From positions 32,001 through 96,000 of the IMG/VR virus record IMGVR_UViG_3300032227_000318: DNA of 64,000 nt. One strand, written 5' to 3'. Positions 1,727 to 59,762 of the stretch are shown here, piece by piece. The DNA comes from a virus. Its lineage: Duplodnaviria; Caudoviricetes. Under the pieces are notes generated by a model. The model worked only from the letters and a program-made list of their open reading frames with translations, searched no databases and was not told the origin of the DNA. The position numbers and the translations under genes are program-made. Within the stretch, counting starts at the first letter, position 1. Every line of letters starts with the position of its first letter.

Positions 1727-2032
1727 GGTGGCCCGTTCTGTTTCTAGGTGGAACCATACCCACAGGTATCACGCTGCTAGAGCGTAAGCCTTAGATGCAA
1801 TGAAGTTATCGTTTGCATTTAGAGTTTTGCGCTTGTACGTAGTCGCCTACGGTTATCTCCAGTCAACTATTCTACACTCAGTCGATCCTAGTTCGCCCCC
1901 ATCAGAGATACATCACAACAAACTCTTTCGTGTCTTGCAAGGTCTCATTACAAGAGACGGTGATGTATCTGTGGTGGAGGCGCCGGGTACTGCCCCCGGG
2001 TCCTCAGTGTTTTTTGTTTTCCTTCAACGATA
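1727..2032 (-). ncRNA. ssrA: Permuted (two-piece) tmRNA, tag ANDNFIASKAYALAA
   Basis: Acceptor piece ending CTCCACCA at 1972, hairpin spacer 1901-1971, coding piece starting GGGGGCGAACTAGGATCGAC at 1900, tag frame 1816-1769; outer ends approximate. Confidence 0.93.
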
Positions 2033-2048
2033 ACATAGTATATATGCT

Positions 2049-2678
2049 TTAAGCATACACACTATTCTTTGCTGGCACCTGAATGAAACCTTCAGGTTTA
2101 CCATCATCTCCTACAATAGCGGCTGTTAGATGCCCGCCGTATACACAAGCAGTGTCCACATTTGTGCGATCTGCTACTTGCTCAATCTTACCTAGTCTTG
2201 GTGTATGCCCGTGATAGAAGTGCTTGCCAAGTTGTGCATGTTGATGCTGTTCATATCGTAACCACAAGAGCATTGCATCTGTTTGTTCATTCATTGGAAA
2301 TGCAGGATTAGCACCAGCATGAGCAACGATGATCGTGTCATCCTCATAGTACTTTGGTAGTGCCTTCATCCAATCCATTGCCCAATCGGGTATATAATGG
2401 CCGCGAAAACCACCGAAGCTGACAATTGTTTCAGCAGCATACATGTATTCACCAGCGATAAGCATGTCTTCGTGATTGCCCATTAGAGCAACATGACCAC
2501 GCTGTTGCATCTTCATAATGAACTCTACAACTTCTTTGGACTTAGGACCACGATCAACATAGTCACCAACAAAGATCATTCTAAAATCACCATTCGCATG
2601 TTCGTCTATCTTATGATATAGTTCTAACAACTCATCATAGCAACCATGCACATCACCAATCACATAACGTTTCATCAC
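2049..2678 (-). CDS. Ser/Thr phosphatase-like metallophosphoesterase
   Basis: GDVHG, GDYVDRG, GNHE, HGHT motifs. Confidence 0.9.
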   Translation of the reverse strand: MMKRYVIGDVHGCYDELLELYHKIDEHANGDFRMIFVGDYVDRGPKSKEVVEFIMKMQQRGHVALMGNHEDMLIAGEYMYAAETIVSFGGFRGHYIPDWAMDWMKALPKYYEDDTIIVAHAGANPAFPMNEQTDAMLLWLRYEQHQHAQLGKHFYHGHTPRLGKIEQVADRTNVDTACVYGGHLTAAIVGDDGKPEGFIQVPAKNSVYA

Positions 2679-49435: not shown

Positions 49436-49511
49436 TGGCTGGATAGCTTGGATTCGAACCAAGGACATCCTCGTTAACAGCGAGGCGCTCTACCGCTGGA
49501 GCTACTATCCA
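49436..49511 (-). tRNA. tRNA-Asn(GTT)
   Basis: Cloverleaf, CCA. Confidence 0.93.
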
Positions 49512-49513
49512 AT

Positions 49514-49655
49514 ATTCTACTTTCGTCAGTAGTCACATCATCATATGAGATTCGAACTCATGCCTGCGCCGCTTCTGCGGCACCGTGCTTCCCCTACACC
49601 AATGAATGACTTGTCGCGGTGGCCACCTGCTAGTGACTACTGACGAAAGTAGAAT
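49514..49655 (-). ncRNA. Anticodon-less tRNA-like domain inside a 23-bp perfect stem
   Basis: IR 49514-49536/49633-49655; D arm, 7-bp arm with AGAA loop, T arm ATGAG-TTCGAAT-CTCAT. Confidence 0.7.
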
Positions 49656-49801: not shown

Positions 49802-49837
49802 CATACTGGATATAGTGTCTCAAGGTGCTGGTTTCAA
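49802..49837 (-). promoter_or_regulatory. Repeated early promoter driving the tRNA array
   Basis: TTGAAA-N17-TATATCCAGTATG. Confidence 0.75.
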
Positions 49838-49889
49838 GTCTTTTCTTATTCTTTTTTCGTATATCTGCTATGCACTAGACACAACCCTG

Positions 49890-49928
49890 AAAATGAAAGA
49901 ACCCCGAAACTTTCGCTCCGGGGTTCTA
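49890..49928 (-). terminator. Intrinsic terminator (attenuator)
   Basis: AGAACCCCG/CGGGGTTCT stem then TTCATTTT. Confidence 0.85.
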
Positions 49929-49950
49929 AGAAACTAAGTCTATCTAAGAC

Positions 49951-50031
49951 TTAATACATAGAACCCCCTACACCTGCCCATGATGGCTGGCGTGTCTCTT
50001 GATTAATCGTGAAGGGGCAATAACGTTTCAT
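49951..50031 (-). CDS. Putative attenuator leader peptide MKRYCPFTINQETRQPSWAGVGGSMY
   Basis: 22 distinct codons in a row; contains antiterminator GGGGGTTCTA (49959-49968). Confidence 0.75.
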   Translation of the reverse strand: MKRYCPFTINQETRQPSWAGVGGSMY

Positions 50032-50055
50032 TTCCGTCTTTCTTAAACTGTACTC

Positions 50056-50096
50056 TATTTAGTATACATCCTAGCAGGATTTTATTAGGTTGTCAA
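50056..50096 (-). promoter_or_regulatory. Tandem sigma70-type and late promoters of the leader
   Basis: TTGACA-17-TAGGAT and ACTAAATA. Confidence 0.7.
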
Positions 50097-50105
50097 CTTT
50101 TTTTT

Positions 50106-50182
50106 TGGTGCGAAAGGTGGGACTTGAACCCACAGAACTCGGTTTTTGAGACCGATACGTATACCTATTCCGTCACTCTCGC
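50106..50182 (-). tRNA. tRNA-Leu(CAA), short variable loop
   Basis: TCGGT-CTCAAAA-ACCGA, CCA. Confidence 0.9.
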
Positions 50183-50186
50183 TTAT

Positions 50187-50278
50187 TGGTCGGCGTGCTT
50201 GGATTCGAACCAAGTCAAGAACACTCATCTAGTGCTAAAGGGATTATAAGGCCCTCCCGTGTACCAACACCCACGCCG
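50187..50278 (-). tRNA. Atypical tRNA with TAT anticodon (Ile-AUA reader?)
   Basis: CGGCGTG/CACGCCG acceptor, CTTATAA loop, minimal D loop, long variable arm, CCA. Confidence 0.75.
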
Positions 50279-50282
50279 TTAT

Positions 50283-50732
50283 TTACATTACAGAAAAGAA
50301 TCCAAGTGTGGCATCATTATATTTCTTGTCTCTTTTTCTATCCCAACCACGCTTTGCTCTTTCACTTCTGTCTTGTGATGTAAGTTTTGCTGCTGACGCT
50401 TTACCACCAATTGAGCCAAACTTATCTTTCACTTTATCATAACCTTTTCTGGCATTCTCTTTGGTAAAGCCACCAATGCCACCTTTTCTCATATTATATG
50501 TCTTATTAGTGTTAAAGTCAACAGTTAGTTCGGCTTCTAGCTTGTATGCTTCATCTTTCGATTCAGTGATGAATAAGACTTCTTTTTTGAAGTTGTCTTT
50601 TCCATATTTTCTTAATGCTTCTTCAATAGCACGACCTGAACCAAAATATACATCACTTGGATTGTTTGTTTTATGAACACCAATATAGTGTTTATTGTTG
50701 ATTAGATTTATTGTTTTATATACAGTATACAT
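50283..50732 (-). CDS. GIY-YIG (Seg-like) homing endonuclease
   Basis: YTVYKTIN...YIGVH, YFGSG, YGKDNFKKEVL, YN...GG; TATAAATA at 50754-50761. Confidence 0.85.
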   Translation of the reverse strand: MYTVYKTINLINNKHYIGVHKTNNPSDVYFGSGRAIEEALRKYGKDNFKKEVLFITESKDEAYKLEAELTVDFNTNKTYNMRKGGIGGFTKENARKGYDKVKDKFGSIGGKASAAKLTSQDRSERAKRGWDRKRDKKYNDATLGFFSVM

Positions 50733-50767
50733 CCATTATCTCCTCAGTGGATGTATTTATAGTAAAA

Positions 50768-50843
50768 TGGTGCGACCACCAGGACTCGAACCCGGAACCA
50801 GACAGGTATGAACTGTCAGCTCTAACCGTTGAGCTATAGTCGC
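50768..50843 (-). tRNA. tRNA with CAT anticodon (Met or Ile2)
   Basis: GACAG-TTCATAC-CTGTC, CCA. Confidence 0.88.
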
Positions 50844-50847
50844 TTAT

Positions 50848-50934
50848 TGGTGCGGGCGGTGGGACTCGAACCCACAACGTTTCTATTGTAGCAAATTTTA
50901 AGTCTGCCGCGGCTCACCATTACGCCACGCCCGC
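50848..50934 (-). tRNA. tRNA-Leu(TAA)
   Basis: Cloverleaf, long variable arm, CCA. Confidence 0.93.
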
Positions 50935-50942
50935 TTTATTGT

Positions 50943-51209
50943 TTAGTCCTTCATTGCGCCGGACATGAAGCCCTTGCGAGGATCACCCCACTCAGTCTCA
51001 GCACGAACACGAACATATCGCGCGCGAGTGTCGGCCGTATTAGGATTAGGCACAGTGACCCACGGGTTCTTACCCTTCAACCAGGCTTTCTGCAAGAGTG
51101 TCCACTTATCAATAGCGGAACGTTCACGCTTGATAGCCTTTGACAGGCTGCGATTTGCTTCACGCTCACCCTTAGAGGTGTAAGCAGACTTAGACTTCGG
51201 TGCAGACAT
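50943..51209 (-). CDS. Hypothetical basic protein
   Basis: TSKGER, AWLKGKNPWVTVPNPN. Confidence 0.65.
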   Translation of the reverse strand: MSAPKSKSAYTSKGEREANRSLSKAIKRERSAIDKWTLLQKAWLKGKNPWVTVPNPNTADTRARYVRVRAETEWGDPRKGFMSGAMKD

Positions 51210-51233
51210 TCACTTTCTCCATTATACTATAAT

Positions 51234-51309
51234 TGGCGACCCCTGCACGACTCGAACGTGCGACACCCTGTTTAGAAGACAGGTACTCTATCCACTGAGC
51301 TAAGGGGCC
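51234..51309 (-). tRNA. tRNA-Arg(TCT)
   Basis: Cloverleaf, CCA. Confidence 0.93.
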
Positions 51310-56703: not shown

Positions 56704-57207
56704 TCATCTCTTAGTCCTTGTCATGATTACAAACTTGCCTCTTTCACGTTCACTCTTGATAATTGGACCAATAGCTCTCATGAATTCAGGCAGATAATCC
56801 ATTTGATTGATAATCAAAATATCATAGTCGATATTCTTTATGTCATCTTGGTCACCCATTATCAATTGATAGTATATATTGTTTAAGTCCATAACATAGA
56901 TTGATCCATTCAAAGAATAGATGTTGTTATCTAAACCGATAACTTCGAAGCCTTCTTTTGTTAGTAGAATGTTATTAATACCAGCACAAGTACCAATATC
57001 TAAGATTTTTTTACCTTCATATTCTTCTTTTCTCTGAATTATATATTCAGAGACGGCTGTGTTATGATCTAAAGGATCAACTTGACCTTTATAGATATAC
57101 TGAGGTACACGAACATCTTTAATTGTCAAGACTTCGCGTTTTTCCCAAGTGGCTCTATCGGCCGCATTAAAGAATTGGTAATTATGAAACTTGATATTTT
57201 CAATCAT
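56704..57207 (-). CDS. SAM-dependent methyltransferase-like protein
   Basis: KKILDIGTCAG, VIGLD. Confidence 0.7.
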   Translation of the reverse strand: MIENIKFHNYQFFNAADRATWEKREVLTIKDVRVPQYIYKGQVDPLDHNTAVSEYIIQRKEEYEGKKILDIGTCAGINNILLTKEGFEVIGLDNNIYSLNGSIYVMDLNNIYYQLIMGDQDDIKNIDYDILIINQMDYLPEFMRAIGPIIKSERERGKFVIMTRTKR

Positions 57208-59762
57208 GAAAAGAAATCTTCCAATGAGCTAACATGTTCAGTCTTCCAGCCGATGCTATCAAGAATGATCTTCAAAGGTTCCACAAAAGACTTGTCGAAC
57301 TGCATATTATAGTCGATATACTTCTCTAATGCAAACTCTTTCGGCAAGGACTGCGGGAAAGCAATCACATTAGACTGCACATGATTTGGTTCTTTAAGGA
57401 AGATAAACTTGATCTTCTCACCTTCATTGATCGTGGGCAATACCTTGTCCAGCTTTTTTGTTCTGACAAAGTTATTGTAGATCAAAGAACCGCGAACATG
57501 TATCGGACATCCTTTGCCATAAATTGTGGTTTTATCGGAGAACTTCTTTAGTCCATTAACACCACGCGGGAATGCAATGTCAGCAATCGGCTGTTTCATA
57601 AATTCGCTGCGATGGTAATCAATGAACTCAAGCATCTCGGCCTGTGTTTTATTCAGGACAATATCAATTGATTCCCACAAAATCTTACGGCAATACGATG
57701 GCGTAGATGACTTGACCATTTCAAGGCCCATCACCTTTACCTTCGGCTTTGCATACTCGACACCTTCGTTATTATATACATTCAAAATGTAACGCTTCTT
57801 GGCTGTCCAGATACCCTTGTCAGCAAGAGCTTCACGCTTCATTTGCATTTTCTGTCCGTAGGCGTTAACATATTCAGCAAGTTCGCCGTAAGATTGGTCA
57901 ATAAACGGTTGAATTTTATTTTCACAGACCTTATCCATGAAGGCGATAATTTGTTTTGTTGTAGCATTAGGATTCTGCTCAACAATAGTCTTGCTGACCA
58001 ATCTATCAAGAGAGAGGTAAATAGAATCTGTGTCCGACGCAATAACATAATCTTCTTTCTCCGTTTTGAGTAGCTTGTTCATATACTCATTTAGTTTGTT
58101 CTCAATCCAGCGAATAGCCAACTGGCCGGCCGTAGTAATAGCCGAAGCCTGACGGACATCAAAGAAACGGAAGAACTCATTACCCAATGCACCGTAAGCG
58201 GAGTTCAGAGAGACTTTCTTTGCAAGCTGTAGATTGTTATACCTTGCAATTCGCTTCTCAATATCAAAACGCTTTTCGGAGTCGGCTTCTTTTTCAAGTT
58301 CTTTCTTAGCTTCGATAGCCTTCTTTTTGTATACGCTGCGGTCATTGTACATTGTCTCCATTAGTTCAGGCAGAAACCCATATTGTTCTTTGCTGAAGAA
58401 CTGGCCGTTGGGCGCAAGTGTTACATTAGCGACCTTTAAAATGTTAGTGTTAACTTCTTGGTTCAAGAGAGAATCAATACTCACATTGTTCTGCCCTTTG
58501 AACTCACTCAAAGTTACATCATAGTTGTCTGGTTCAATGATAGTATCAGGCGAGATATTCCACTGCATGATCAAATGTGGATACAGGCTGTTCAAGTCGA
58601 AACTTGCGACCCAATTGTGCTTGCCAAGAAGAGGATCTTTAACGAATGCACCAATATATGCTTCAGACTTGCTGTGCTTATCATTCTGAGGAATAATAAT
58701 GTTCTTCTCTCTTAGATGATTATAGATGATAACATCCCACATGCGTACCTGCGTGAACACATCATCATAGTTACACTTGTTATCATATGCAAGAGTTAGA
58801 ACAAGTTCAATCAATTTTAGCTTATCATCTAGCTTTTCTACTAGCTCAACGTCACGAATGTTGTACTCAATGAATAGCTGATAGTTCTCTTTGTGAAGAG
58901 TATGAAGAGAACCATATTCTTCATAAGAAAGCTTACGCTCACCAAGTTCAACATTACAGATAGCATCAAGCTTGTAAGATTCCTGAGATTGTCCGCCAGG
59001 TGCAAACTTGCGATACATCTCAATATAGTCAAGAATGGCAATACCAGCAGGCACATAAGCCTTCTGGTCACGGCCCATGAGTGTGACTGTACGTTCTGAT
59101 AGAGAATTCCAAGGAGAGATACGATTAGCCATGGCTTCGCCAAATAGATTGCGAATGCGGTTCACCAGATAGGGAATATCGAAGAACTTCACATTCCAGC
59201 CAGTGACGATATCAGGATAGTTGCCTGACCATTCATCAATATACCTCTTGATCAGATCAACTTCATCTCTACACTGAATGTATGAAACATCATCACGCTT
59301 GTTATTAAATGCACCGCAACCCAAAACAATAAACTTGCCTTGATTACTTTTTAGGGTAATGGCTGTGATGGGTTCAGATGCGGTTGCAGGCTCAGGAAAA
59401 CCATTCTCTGAGCCGACTTCGATATCAATATTGACAATGTTAATGTTAGCAATATCCCAATCAATATGGCCAGAATAAGTATCAGCAATGAACTGATATT
59501 CATATCTCTGCATTCCATAGATTTTGAAGTCTTGAACATCTTTGTATTGCTCAATAAAGTCACGCGCTTCACGCATGGTATCCGGCTTTACTTCAGACAG
59601 ATACTCATTATGAATTGTTCTGAATTCCGTTGGCTTCTGAGAAGGAACAAAAAGAGAAGGAAGATACGGGACCTTCCTTCTCTCTCTTCTTCCATTCTCT
59701 ACACTGCGAAGCAGGATCTTTGATCCGTGAACTTGTATATTTGTGTAGAATGATTTTGACAT
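57204..59762 (-). CDS. 43: Family B DNA polymerase, T4 gp43-like
   Basis: DIEV, TGWNV..FD, YNIRDV, SFDLNSLYP, KVSLNSAYG, SDTDS, KKRY. Confidence 0.98.
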   Translation of the reverse strand: MSKSFYTNIQVHGSKILLRSVENGRRERRKVPYLPSLFVPSQKPTEFRTIHNEYLSEVKPDTMREARDFIEQYKDVQDFKIYGMQRYEYQFIADTYSGHIDWDIANINIVNIDIEVGSENGFPEPATASEPITAITLKSNQGKFIVLGCGAFNNKRDDVSYIQCRDEVDLIKRYIDEWSGNYPDIVTGWNVKFFDIPYLVNRIRNLFGEAMANRISPWNSLSERTVTLMGRDQKAYVPAGIAILDYIEMYRKFAPGGQSQESYKLDAICNVELGERKLSYEEYGSLHTLHKENYQLFIEYNIRDVELVEKLDDKLKLIELVLTLAYDNKCNYDDVFTQVRMWDVIIYNHLREKNIIIPQNDKHSKSEAYIGAFVKDPLLGKHNWVASFDLNSLYPHLIMQWNISPDTIIEPDNYDVTLSEFKGQNNVSIDSLLNQEVNTNILKVANVTLAPNGQFFSKEQYGFLPELMETMYNDRSVYKKKAIEAKKELEKEADSEKRFDIEKRIARYNNLQLAKKVSLNSAYGALGNEFFRFFDVRQASAITTAGQLAIRWIENKLNEYMNKLLKTEKEDYVIASDTDSIYLSLDRLVSKTIVEQNPNATTKQIIAFMDKVCENKIQPFIDQSYGELAEYVNAYGQKMQMKREALADKGIWTAKKRYILNVYNNEGVEYAKPKVKVMGLEMVKSSTPSYCRKILWESIDIVLNKTQAEMLEFIDYHRSEFMKQPIADIAFPRGVNGLKKFSDKTTIYGKGCPIHVRGSLIYNNFVRTKKLDKVLPTINEGEKIKFIFLKEPNHVQSNVIAFPQSLPKEFALEKYIDYNMQFDKSFVEPLKIILDSIGWKTEHVSSLEDFFS

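Follow-up and report, generated by a model that had tools for sequence, protein, structure and literature searches.

An element inside the tRNA gene region of a phage genome is, in our judgement, probably a ribosome-mediated transcription attenuator that separates the first five tRNA genes from the main block of 23. It was found in the window, by which we mean the whole 64-kb stretch of DNA analysed here. As judged by sequence, the source is an uncultured, distant T4-like phage, since its DNA polymerase (57204-59762) shares about 50% identity with gp43 of cyanomyoviruses. The sequence record is a contig of 110 kb from IMG/VR, and the phage has an alpha-type tmRNA. From the features of the element, its conservation and covariation and its predicted folds, we infer that the leader ORF is translated, that the switch alters read-through, and what kind of signal is read. 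An earlier note on this DNA had proposed an attenuator that senses the tRNA pool through the codon diversity of a short leader. The attenuator geometry is strengthened by the conserved ORF, by indels in multiples of three, by covariation of the antiterminator, by synteny and by the layout of a diverged analogue, whereas the codon-diversity sensor is not established as a selected design.

The element and its place among the tRNA genes

The element lies entirely on the minus strand, as do all of the window's 28 tRNA genes. From 5' to 3' along that strand they are as follows.

50068..50096, minus strand: sigma-70-type promoter (TTGACA at 50096-50091, 17-nt spacer, TAGGAT at 50073-50068) with an upstream (extended) TG; 10/12 matches
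50056..50063, minus strand: late-promoter-like motif ACTAAATA, recognized by sequence
50037..50044, minus strand: weak purine-rich ribosome-binding tract AAGAAAGA, 5 nt (its GGA 1 nt) 5' of the ATG
49951..50031, minus strand: leader ORF of 26 codons plus TAA, recognized by sequence and open in all 25 relatives
50012..50018, minus strand: region 1 (GCCCCTT), a possible anti-antiterminator strand pairing with the 5' part of region 2 in full-length minimum-energy folds
49970..49993, minus strand: hairpin within the ORF, a possible pause hairpin (-10.7 kcal/mol; covariation)
49959..49968, minus strand: region 2, the putative antiterminator 5' strand GGGGGTTCTA in codons 22-25, complementary to TAGAACCCC
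49935..49953, minus strand: bridging 7-bp hairpin TAAGTCT/AGACTTA, its 5' arm starting with the TAA stop (fold and conservation)
49920..49928, minus strand: region 3, TAGAACCCC, common to the antiterminator and the terminator 5' arm (covariation and folds)
49889..49927, minus strand: intrinsic terminator with a 13-bp stem (49927-49898) and GAAA loop, then TTCATTTTC as U-rich tail (-22.0 kcal/mol; six covarying pairs)
49809..49837, minus strand: second promoter-like site right behind the terminator (TTGAAA at 49837-49832, 17 nt, TATATC at 49814-49809)

The two promoters in front of the leader and the spelling of the 26-codon ORF agree with the earlier note once read on the minus strand, and its codon counts are right: the first 12 residues all differ, as do the first 22 codons, which together specify 17 amino acids, without D, H and L. 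The complementarity it had described between region 2 (GGGGGTTCTA) and the terminator 5' arm (TAGAACCCC) is present, the hairpin TAAGTCT/AGACTTA that bridges the two lies at 49953-49935, and the ribosome-binding tract AAGAAAGA, which it had named as a caveat, is indeed weak in the window. Six unpaired bases separate the bridging hairpin from the terminator stem. Counting both strands, the 64-kb window has three copies of the motif GGGGTTCT (0.76 expected), all of them within the element, namely in the ORF end, the terminator 3' arm and, as complement, the terminator 5' arm. The whole leader folds at -60.8 kcal/mol, with a z of -5.2 against shuffles.

The element had been described as standing in front of the tRNA array; it actually lies inside the tRNA region. 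Five tRNA genes (Arg-UCU, Leu-UAA, Met, Ile-UAU and Leu-CAA) occupy 50106-51309 upstream of it, and 23 follow downstream, the first being Asn-GUU at 49511. The roughly 290 nt between the second promoter-like site and the tRNA block hold a perfect inverted repeat of 23 bp that encloses a tRNA-like element.

The same note had also placed a separate early promoter at 49802-49837, which would bypass the switch. The TTGAAA, the 17-nt spacer and the TATATC are there, but in the window the -10 element is without the final T of the hexamer. Among relatives, the site reads TTGAAA or TTGACT, then 17 nt, then TATATT, and L006 has another promoter-like site at this position despite its differing sequence. 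In addition, the window contains six exact copies of TATAAATA, which we take to be a T4-type late promoter, all on the gene strand, and further TATAAATA motifs lie within the tRNA array. Because a promoter is conserved behind the terminator and TATAAATA occurs inside the array, only transcription arriving from upstream would be conditional, a concession of the earlier note with which we agree. Upstream transcription here comprises that from the late promoter ahead of the leader and the read-through from the first five tRNA genes. Given the conserved bypass promoter and the internal TATAAATA motifs, the tRNA genes are not dependent on the switch.

When 800 nt were compared with cultured phages by megablast and blastn, the sole match was the tRNA-Leu part. 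The element was thus seen in no cultured phage, and so it cannot be tied to a named host or laboratory system. Thirteen RNA runs contain small shares of the stretch, and four metatranscriptomes, all in contig form, were compared with it. A 217-nt contig from the freshwater run X10 spans 49832-50022, running from the leader through the terminator and 65 nt beyond, and a 151-nt contig from X1 spans 49897-49944; contigs of this kind reveal neither transcript ends nor strand nor level, and may come from DNA in the library.

A conserved reading frame and two competing predicted structures

Relatives were collected from IMG/VR by a polymerase scan and two DNA patterns, and from metagenomes by one pattern. 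These searches yielded 25 different versions of the module, aligned as A2, and L015, a diverged analogue. The pattern TAATCAA, 12 nt, CCANCATGGGC excludes the proposed antiterminator, so that it introduces no bias in the 3' half of the members it found; these comprised all those detected with the other pattern, plus variants with a changed GGGGTTCTATG block. The search patterns themselves dictated two blocks of the ORF, whose invariance is uninformative. The pattern TGCCCC..CATCATGGGCAG proved too loose, with 74 matches that were mostly due to chance and zero new family members, and an nhmmer search with the family profile over 213 loci added nothing to the members recovered by pattern.

Wherever a locus reaches far enough, the module is flanked by tRNA-Leu(CAA) and tRNA-Asn(GUU). 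The interval on the Leu side is variable, the module following the tRNA directly or after up to 1.4 kb with protein genes. Most relatives carry an exact TATAAATA where the window has ACTAAATA; the TTGACA hexamer is retained, and in one group the -10 element overlaps the exact TATAAATA. At the extremes, the ribosome-binding site is missing (L082) or is a well-spaced GAGG (L187).

The ORF begins with ATG and is open in 25 of 25 versions, at 25-28 codons and with a constant stop position; counting L015, the ATG and the stop position are retained in 26/26. Within the ORF, indels arose in about five separate events (one each at the codon after AAA, at GTGATGAGG versus GTAGGG and at the L099 N-terminus, and two in the L175 type), always in multiples of three, while those in the spacer and in the loops of the hairpin and the terminator measure 1 or 2 nt in A2. 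Conservation of the frame, which the earlier note had expected of relatives, therefore holds across the family. Variable sites in the ORF are spread evenly over the codon positions (13/11/13), with no third-position excess. In region 2, the third positions of GGT and xCT are invariant in the 25 sequences and the first position of xCT varies (Ser, Ala or Thr), which points to a constraint at the RNA level. Taken together, this variation looks like the signature of a frame that needs to be read, with a peptide that is not the main target of selection and with RNA constraints overlaid.

The covariation of the terminator, in which 96.7% of the cells are paired and six pairs are changed on both sides across relatives, places this predicted structure beyond doubt. 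In the 9-bp antiterminator (A2 columns 93-101 with 136-146), 94.7% of the cells are paired and two pairs are changed on both sides. The covariation anticipated by the earlier note is seen most directly in L180, where the ORF changes GGG to GGA (synonymous), the terminator 5' arm C to T and the 3' arm G to A, and both helices stay Watson-Crick. In L173, L175, L176, L183, L187 and L202, ATG is replaced by GTG or GTA together with a change of TTAGAA to TCAGAA, which turns the terminal A-U of the antiterminator into G-C at a position outside the terminator; the change in these six sequences is probably one event. In L211 the terminator is rebuilt (AGAGCCTC... with ...GAGGCT) and its 3' arm compensates fully, and the two transitions in the 5' arm still pair with the unchanged region 2 via wobble pairs. 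L006 has a compensated G-C to A-U change in the terminator that leaves a C-A mismatch in the antiterminator. The number of independent compensatory events behind the antiterminator is 2-3.

Of the remaining helices, the bridging hairpin combines a conserved stem with loops of variable sequence and length. The ORF-internal hairpin is paired in 99% of the cells and shows one switch from C-G to U-A in 9 sequences, brought about by nonsynonymous changes. Support for region 1 is weak because its pairing comprises just three consensus pairs with no compensatory change, making it the weakest component of the element.

The alternative folding supposed in the earlier note was reproduced with RNAalifold on A2 and with single-sequence folds of eight diverse members plus L015. 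When the transcript is cut after region 3, as in a nascent RNA, the minimum-energy fold is the region 2:3 pairing around the small hairpin in 9/9 members; at full length the terminator forms and region 2 pairs back to the C-rich region 1. A pairing of the start-codon region with the U-tract, present in the fold of the window, is inconsistent in relatives and was discarded. The predicted energies in the window are:

antiterminator plus bridging hairpin: -24.1 kcal/mol, z about -5.8
terminator: -22.0 kcal/mol, z -5.8
region 1:2 plus inner hairpin: -19.4 kcal/mol
inner hairpin alone: -10.7 kcal/mol

Two defining features of an attenuator, an intrinsic terminator ahead of downstream genes and an antiterminator that excludes it, are accordingly found here by both folding and covariation.

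Moreover, the same arrangement recurs in L015, a locus whose phage polymerase is 69% identical and which carries TATAAATA and a 31-codon ORF for a largely different peptide. The last codons of this ORF contain GGGTTCTTG, which faces CAAGAACCC, and the latter overlaps the 5' arm of a different terminator; between the two strands lies an unrelated 9-bp hairpin that holds the stop codon. The L015 antiterminator differs from that of the main family in having gained one matching base on each strand. As far as sequence comparison goes, L015 is the strongest single piece of evidence for the alternative structures. A codon-degenerate pattern for the L015-type ORF found L015 itself only, and the module is absent from L014, whose polymerase is 68% identical.

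These data bear on three other explanations. The best-surviving one, which we nevertheless regard as unlikely, is a stand-alone gene for the 26-residue peptide, for instance a small effector made early and late, with a terminator of its own; the complementarity at the ORF end would then serve mRNA stability or have no function. Such a gene would account for the dedicated promoters, the strong terminator and the promoter that restarts transcription right behind it, and the residues Y-C-P, N-Q and P-S-W-A do recur in the family, although this recurrence partly reflects the search patterns. A gene selected for its peptide is, however, hard to reconcile with the even spread of variation over codon positions, with region 2 synonymous sites that stay invariant while the residue changes (S, A or T), with compensatory changes that preserve the region 2:region 3 pairing, or with L015, where the RNA layout is retained and the peptide is unrelated. 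Nor did the 26-residue peptide match any Pfam or PHROG family.

Less probable still is that the terminated transcript of roughly 150 nt is itself the product, a structured and possibly trans-acting small RNA in which the frame is secondary. Attenuator RNAs with trans roles exist, rnTrpL being an example (PMC6614838), and the strong fold of the leader (z -5.2), the covariation of the ORF hairpin through nonsynonymous changes and the conservation of region 2 nucleotides beyond that of the peptide would all suit an RNA product. A non-coding RNA would have no reason, though, to confine ORF indels to multiples of three, to keep the ATG and stop in 26/26, or to place the stop always within the bridging hairpin, 5 nt beyond region 2, and between 49512 and 50105 nothing in Rfam matches at E up to 1, the flanking tRNAs alone giving matches.

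The least probable of the three is a switch set by a non-ribosomal trigger, either a phage or host RNA-binding protein (candidates being proteins like the translational repressor RegA) or a tRNA or small molecule that binds the leader: alternative structures as such are independent of the trigger, the conserved internal hairpin and the single-stranded A-rich stretches could be binding sites and tRNA genes are neighbours, but no T-box or other Rfam leader or riboswitch matches at E up to 1, no specifier-like or aptamer-like core is conserved outside the ORF, and the conservation of frame and stop position would be left unexplained.

Proposed operation of the attenuator

Under ribosome-mediated attenuation, which we prefer, transcripts would start at the nearby early and late promoters or come from the upstream tRNA genes, and all of them would carry the leader ORF. 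Region 3, on emerging from the polymerase, would pair with region 2, the small hairpin bringing both together, and the resulting antiterminator would take up the base of the terminator 5' arm. A closely following ribosome on codons 19 to the stop would cover region 2 and melt the bridging hairpin; region 3 would then be free, the 13-bp terminator would form and transcription would end. If the leader is untranslated, or the ribosome is delayed before about codon 16, region 2 would be free, the antiterminator would form first and part of the polymerases would continue into the tRNA block. The quantity sensed would be the ease with which ribosomes pass through the leader, so that lack of any one of the leader's many tRNAs, or any other block of translation, would count.

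The positions of these parts fit such a scheme. In the family and in L015 alike, 5 nt separate the end of region 2 from the stop codon, and a ribosome with any of codons 19 to the stop in its A site should therefore cover region 2 and open the bridging hairpin. The distance from the stop codon to the terminator stem is 23 nt; since a ribosome protects roughly 10 nt downstream of the A site, a terminating ribosome should leave room for the terminator. Experiments in E. coli gave about 90% termination when the stop codon lay 28 bp ahead of a terminator and under 10% when it lay 5 bp ahead (PMC4824070), and by analogy the 23-nt spacing is compatible with a terminating ribosome that leaves the terminator free. 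What speaks for control of the fold choice by ribosome position is thus purely geometric.

As long as region 4 has not been made, the antiterminator has an advantage of roughly 8-10 kcal/mol over the region 1:2 pairing, and an untranslated leader is therefore predicted to read through, unlike that of trp. The upper five pairs of the terminator lie outside the antiterminator; left uncovered, they could nucleate strand displacement, so the 'on' state may be partial and read-through modest.

What the leader may sense, and comparison with known systems

The earlier note had expected high codon diversity to be a conserved property of the leader, and this is seen in part of the family. In the window, 17 amino acids in 22 codons have P=0.005 and 22 different codons P=0.002 under a null of phage codon usage, and the diversity of the whole ORF has P=0.08 under shuffles of its own bases. 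L173 is extreme, with all 20 amino acids within 26 residues (P<0.0001), as the outlier among about 20 related sequences; several members have 18-19 and most have 17-20/20. L004 (15) and L082 (14), on the other hand, are ordinary, at the mean of the composition-matched null (14.6 +/- 1.5 amino acids). GC-rich stems interleaved with AT-rich linkers raise diversity on their own. With a family range of 14 to 20 set against that null, maximal codon diversity is not established as a conserved design feature.

A related claim, that codons 2-21 are served by the downstream tRNAs, is correct for 18/20, CGT (3) and CGC (14) being without a phage tRNA. Since nearly all codon boxes are covered by the phage's tRNAs, agreement between leader codons and tRNAs is uninformative; nearly any ORF would score as high, and we do not use it as evidence. 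Tandem regulatory codons are absent, the longest run in any member being AAT AAT.

On the model above, a general sensor of translation performance would be the natural reading of the geometry. A more specific idea, which we put forward tentatively and consider doubtful, is that the leader is a decoding 'test track' with about one codon per amino acid, on which slow decoding of any of them would open transcription of the tRNA block. The causes may be tRNA cleavage by a host anticodon nuclease, uncharged tRNA, or tRNA shortage during late synthesis. If true, the test track would provide a homeostatic, counter-defence feedback loop for tRNA supply. Control logic of this kind is so far known to us for amino-acid and synthetase genes, not for tRNA genes.

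The classical examples are the enterobacterial leader-peptide attenuators, namely trpL, hisL, leuL, thrL, pheL and the ilv leaders. In common with these, the phage element has a short leader (whose translation is predicted) followed by an intrinsic terminator, an antiterminator that uses the terminator 5' arm, termination when the ribosome would reach the leader end and read-through when it would stall earlier, and possibly also an upstream 1:2-type pairing and a pause hairpin. Unlike them, it has many different codons in place of a run of codons for one amino acid, its region 2 lies inside the ORF and not after the stop, its untranslated transcript is predicted to favour the antiterminator in place of super-attenuation, and tRNA genes stand behind it, not biosynthetic enzymes; nor is there any sequence or Rfam relationship. 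For the enterobacterial amino-acid operons, leader-peptide attenuation has been modelled (PMC1183508).

By analogy, the closest system in behaviour would be the uORF attenuator of whiB7 (wblC) in actinobacteria, where silencing of amino-acid biosynthesis genes, tRNAs or tRNA synthetases switches whiB7 on (PMC10274678). Both couple a uORF to antitermination and would sense translation stress in general, as is proposed for the phage element. The two are not homologous, however: the whiB7 uORF is enriched in alanine and controls a transcription factor in the cellular genomes of high-G+C hosts, whereas the phage element is viral and stands among tRNA genes. Drug-responsive leaders would also be close. 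In the antibiotic-responsive attenuators of msrD (PMC10314930) and mef/mel (PMC4335068), a ribosome stalled on a short leader is likewise reported to free an antiterminator and relieve an intrinsic terminator, but the stall needs a drug and a specific nascent peptide motif, neither of which is evident here.

Read-through is also coupled to the state of the tRNA pool, by a choice between terminator and antiterminator, in T-box riboswitches; for the phage element this input is putative. T-boxes bind uncharged tRNA directly and need no translation, and they have a conserved specifier loop and T-box sequence. The phage element has no specifier loop, T-box sequence or Rfam match.

To our knowledge, almost nothing is known about the regulation of phage tRNA genes, and an attenuator in a phage tRNA cluster did not appear in the literature searched, coverage of which was incomplete. 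That phage tRNAs counter tRNA-targeting defences has been established, and their genes are now viewed as a means of maintaining translation when the host degrades tRNAs or a defence cleaves them (PMC11555353, PMC12409363). If the proposed attenuation is true, the phage measures translation performance and adjusts tRNA transcription to it, and classical attenuation extends from metabolic operons to the decoding machinery. The proposed control logic is that of leader-peptide attenuation, with a leader without tandem codons, a region 2 inside the ORF, and tRNA genes behind. The element is small and self-contained and could serve as a compact sensor of translation stress. It comes with natural compensatory variants, which makes it directly testable by reporter fusions and in vitro coupled systems.

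Gain or loss of the candidate attenuator module

The distribution of the module, comprising the leader ORF and terminator of the candidate ribosome-mediated attenuator, was compared in two of the more distant loci:

L015 15745-15915, diverged analogue of the switch
L014 19080-19200, region without the switch module

The analogue in L015 has the same layout as the main family but a different peptide, whereas in L014, which is similarly distant, the T4-type late-promoter motif is followed directly by the second promoter, the promoter-like site that lies behind the terminator in the window. Because one of these loci has a diverged analogue and the other lacks the module, the putative switch has been acquired or lost in the history of this group of phages.

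Elements between the terminator and the tRNA genes

Three further elements were found downstream of the terminator:

window 49880-49855 (-), conserved motif in the interval between terminator and second promoter, also in relatives
window 49521-49651 (-), tRNA-like piece enclosed by a perfect 23-bp inverted repeat
L006 18379-18597, inserted 72-codon ORF of the lineage of relatives L006 and L009

The first, present in most relatives, consists of TATGCG, approximately 9 nt and then CATAGCAGnTATGCAAAA, with TATGC repeated within it, and may be a protein-binding site. The tRNA-like piece, located between the second promoter and tRNA-Asn, has a canonical T arm, and an Rfam search of this element returned no match. 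Its counterpart in L006 is 96% conserved, and ARAGORN predicted odd tRNA-like genes at the equivalent position in two other relatives (L176 1696-1763 and L202 1236-1304). The element could be a small stable RNA processed by RNase III. The 72-codon ORF, which sits behind the terminator and ahead of the tRNA-like element, has the ribosome-binding site GAGGAG and its own promoter-like site upstream.

Late-promoter motifs and tmRNA

window 44787, 45705, 48867, 50754, 11435 and 23759 (-), six exact TATAAATA motifs
window 1727-2098 (-), phage-borne permuted (two-piece) tmRNA, detected with Rfam and ARAGORN

Every exact TATAAATA copy in the window is on the gene strand. Four of the six lie within the tRNA region ahead of inserted ORFs, a distribution that fits the presence of T4-type late promoters within the tRNA array. 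The tmRNA scored 100.5 bits with the Rfam model alpha_tmRNA and 118.3 bits with tmRNA_permuted, and its tag peptide is ANDNFIASKAYALAA according to ARAGORN. Carriage of this tmRNA suggests an alphaproteobacterial host, and also that the phage invests in the rescue of stalled ribosomes.
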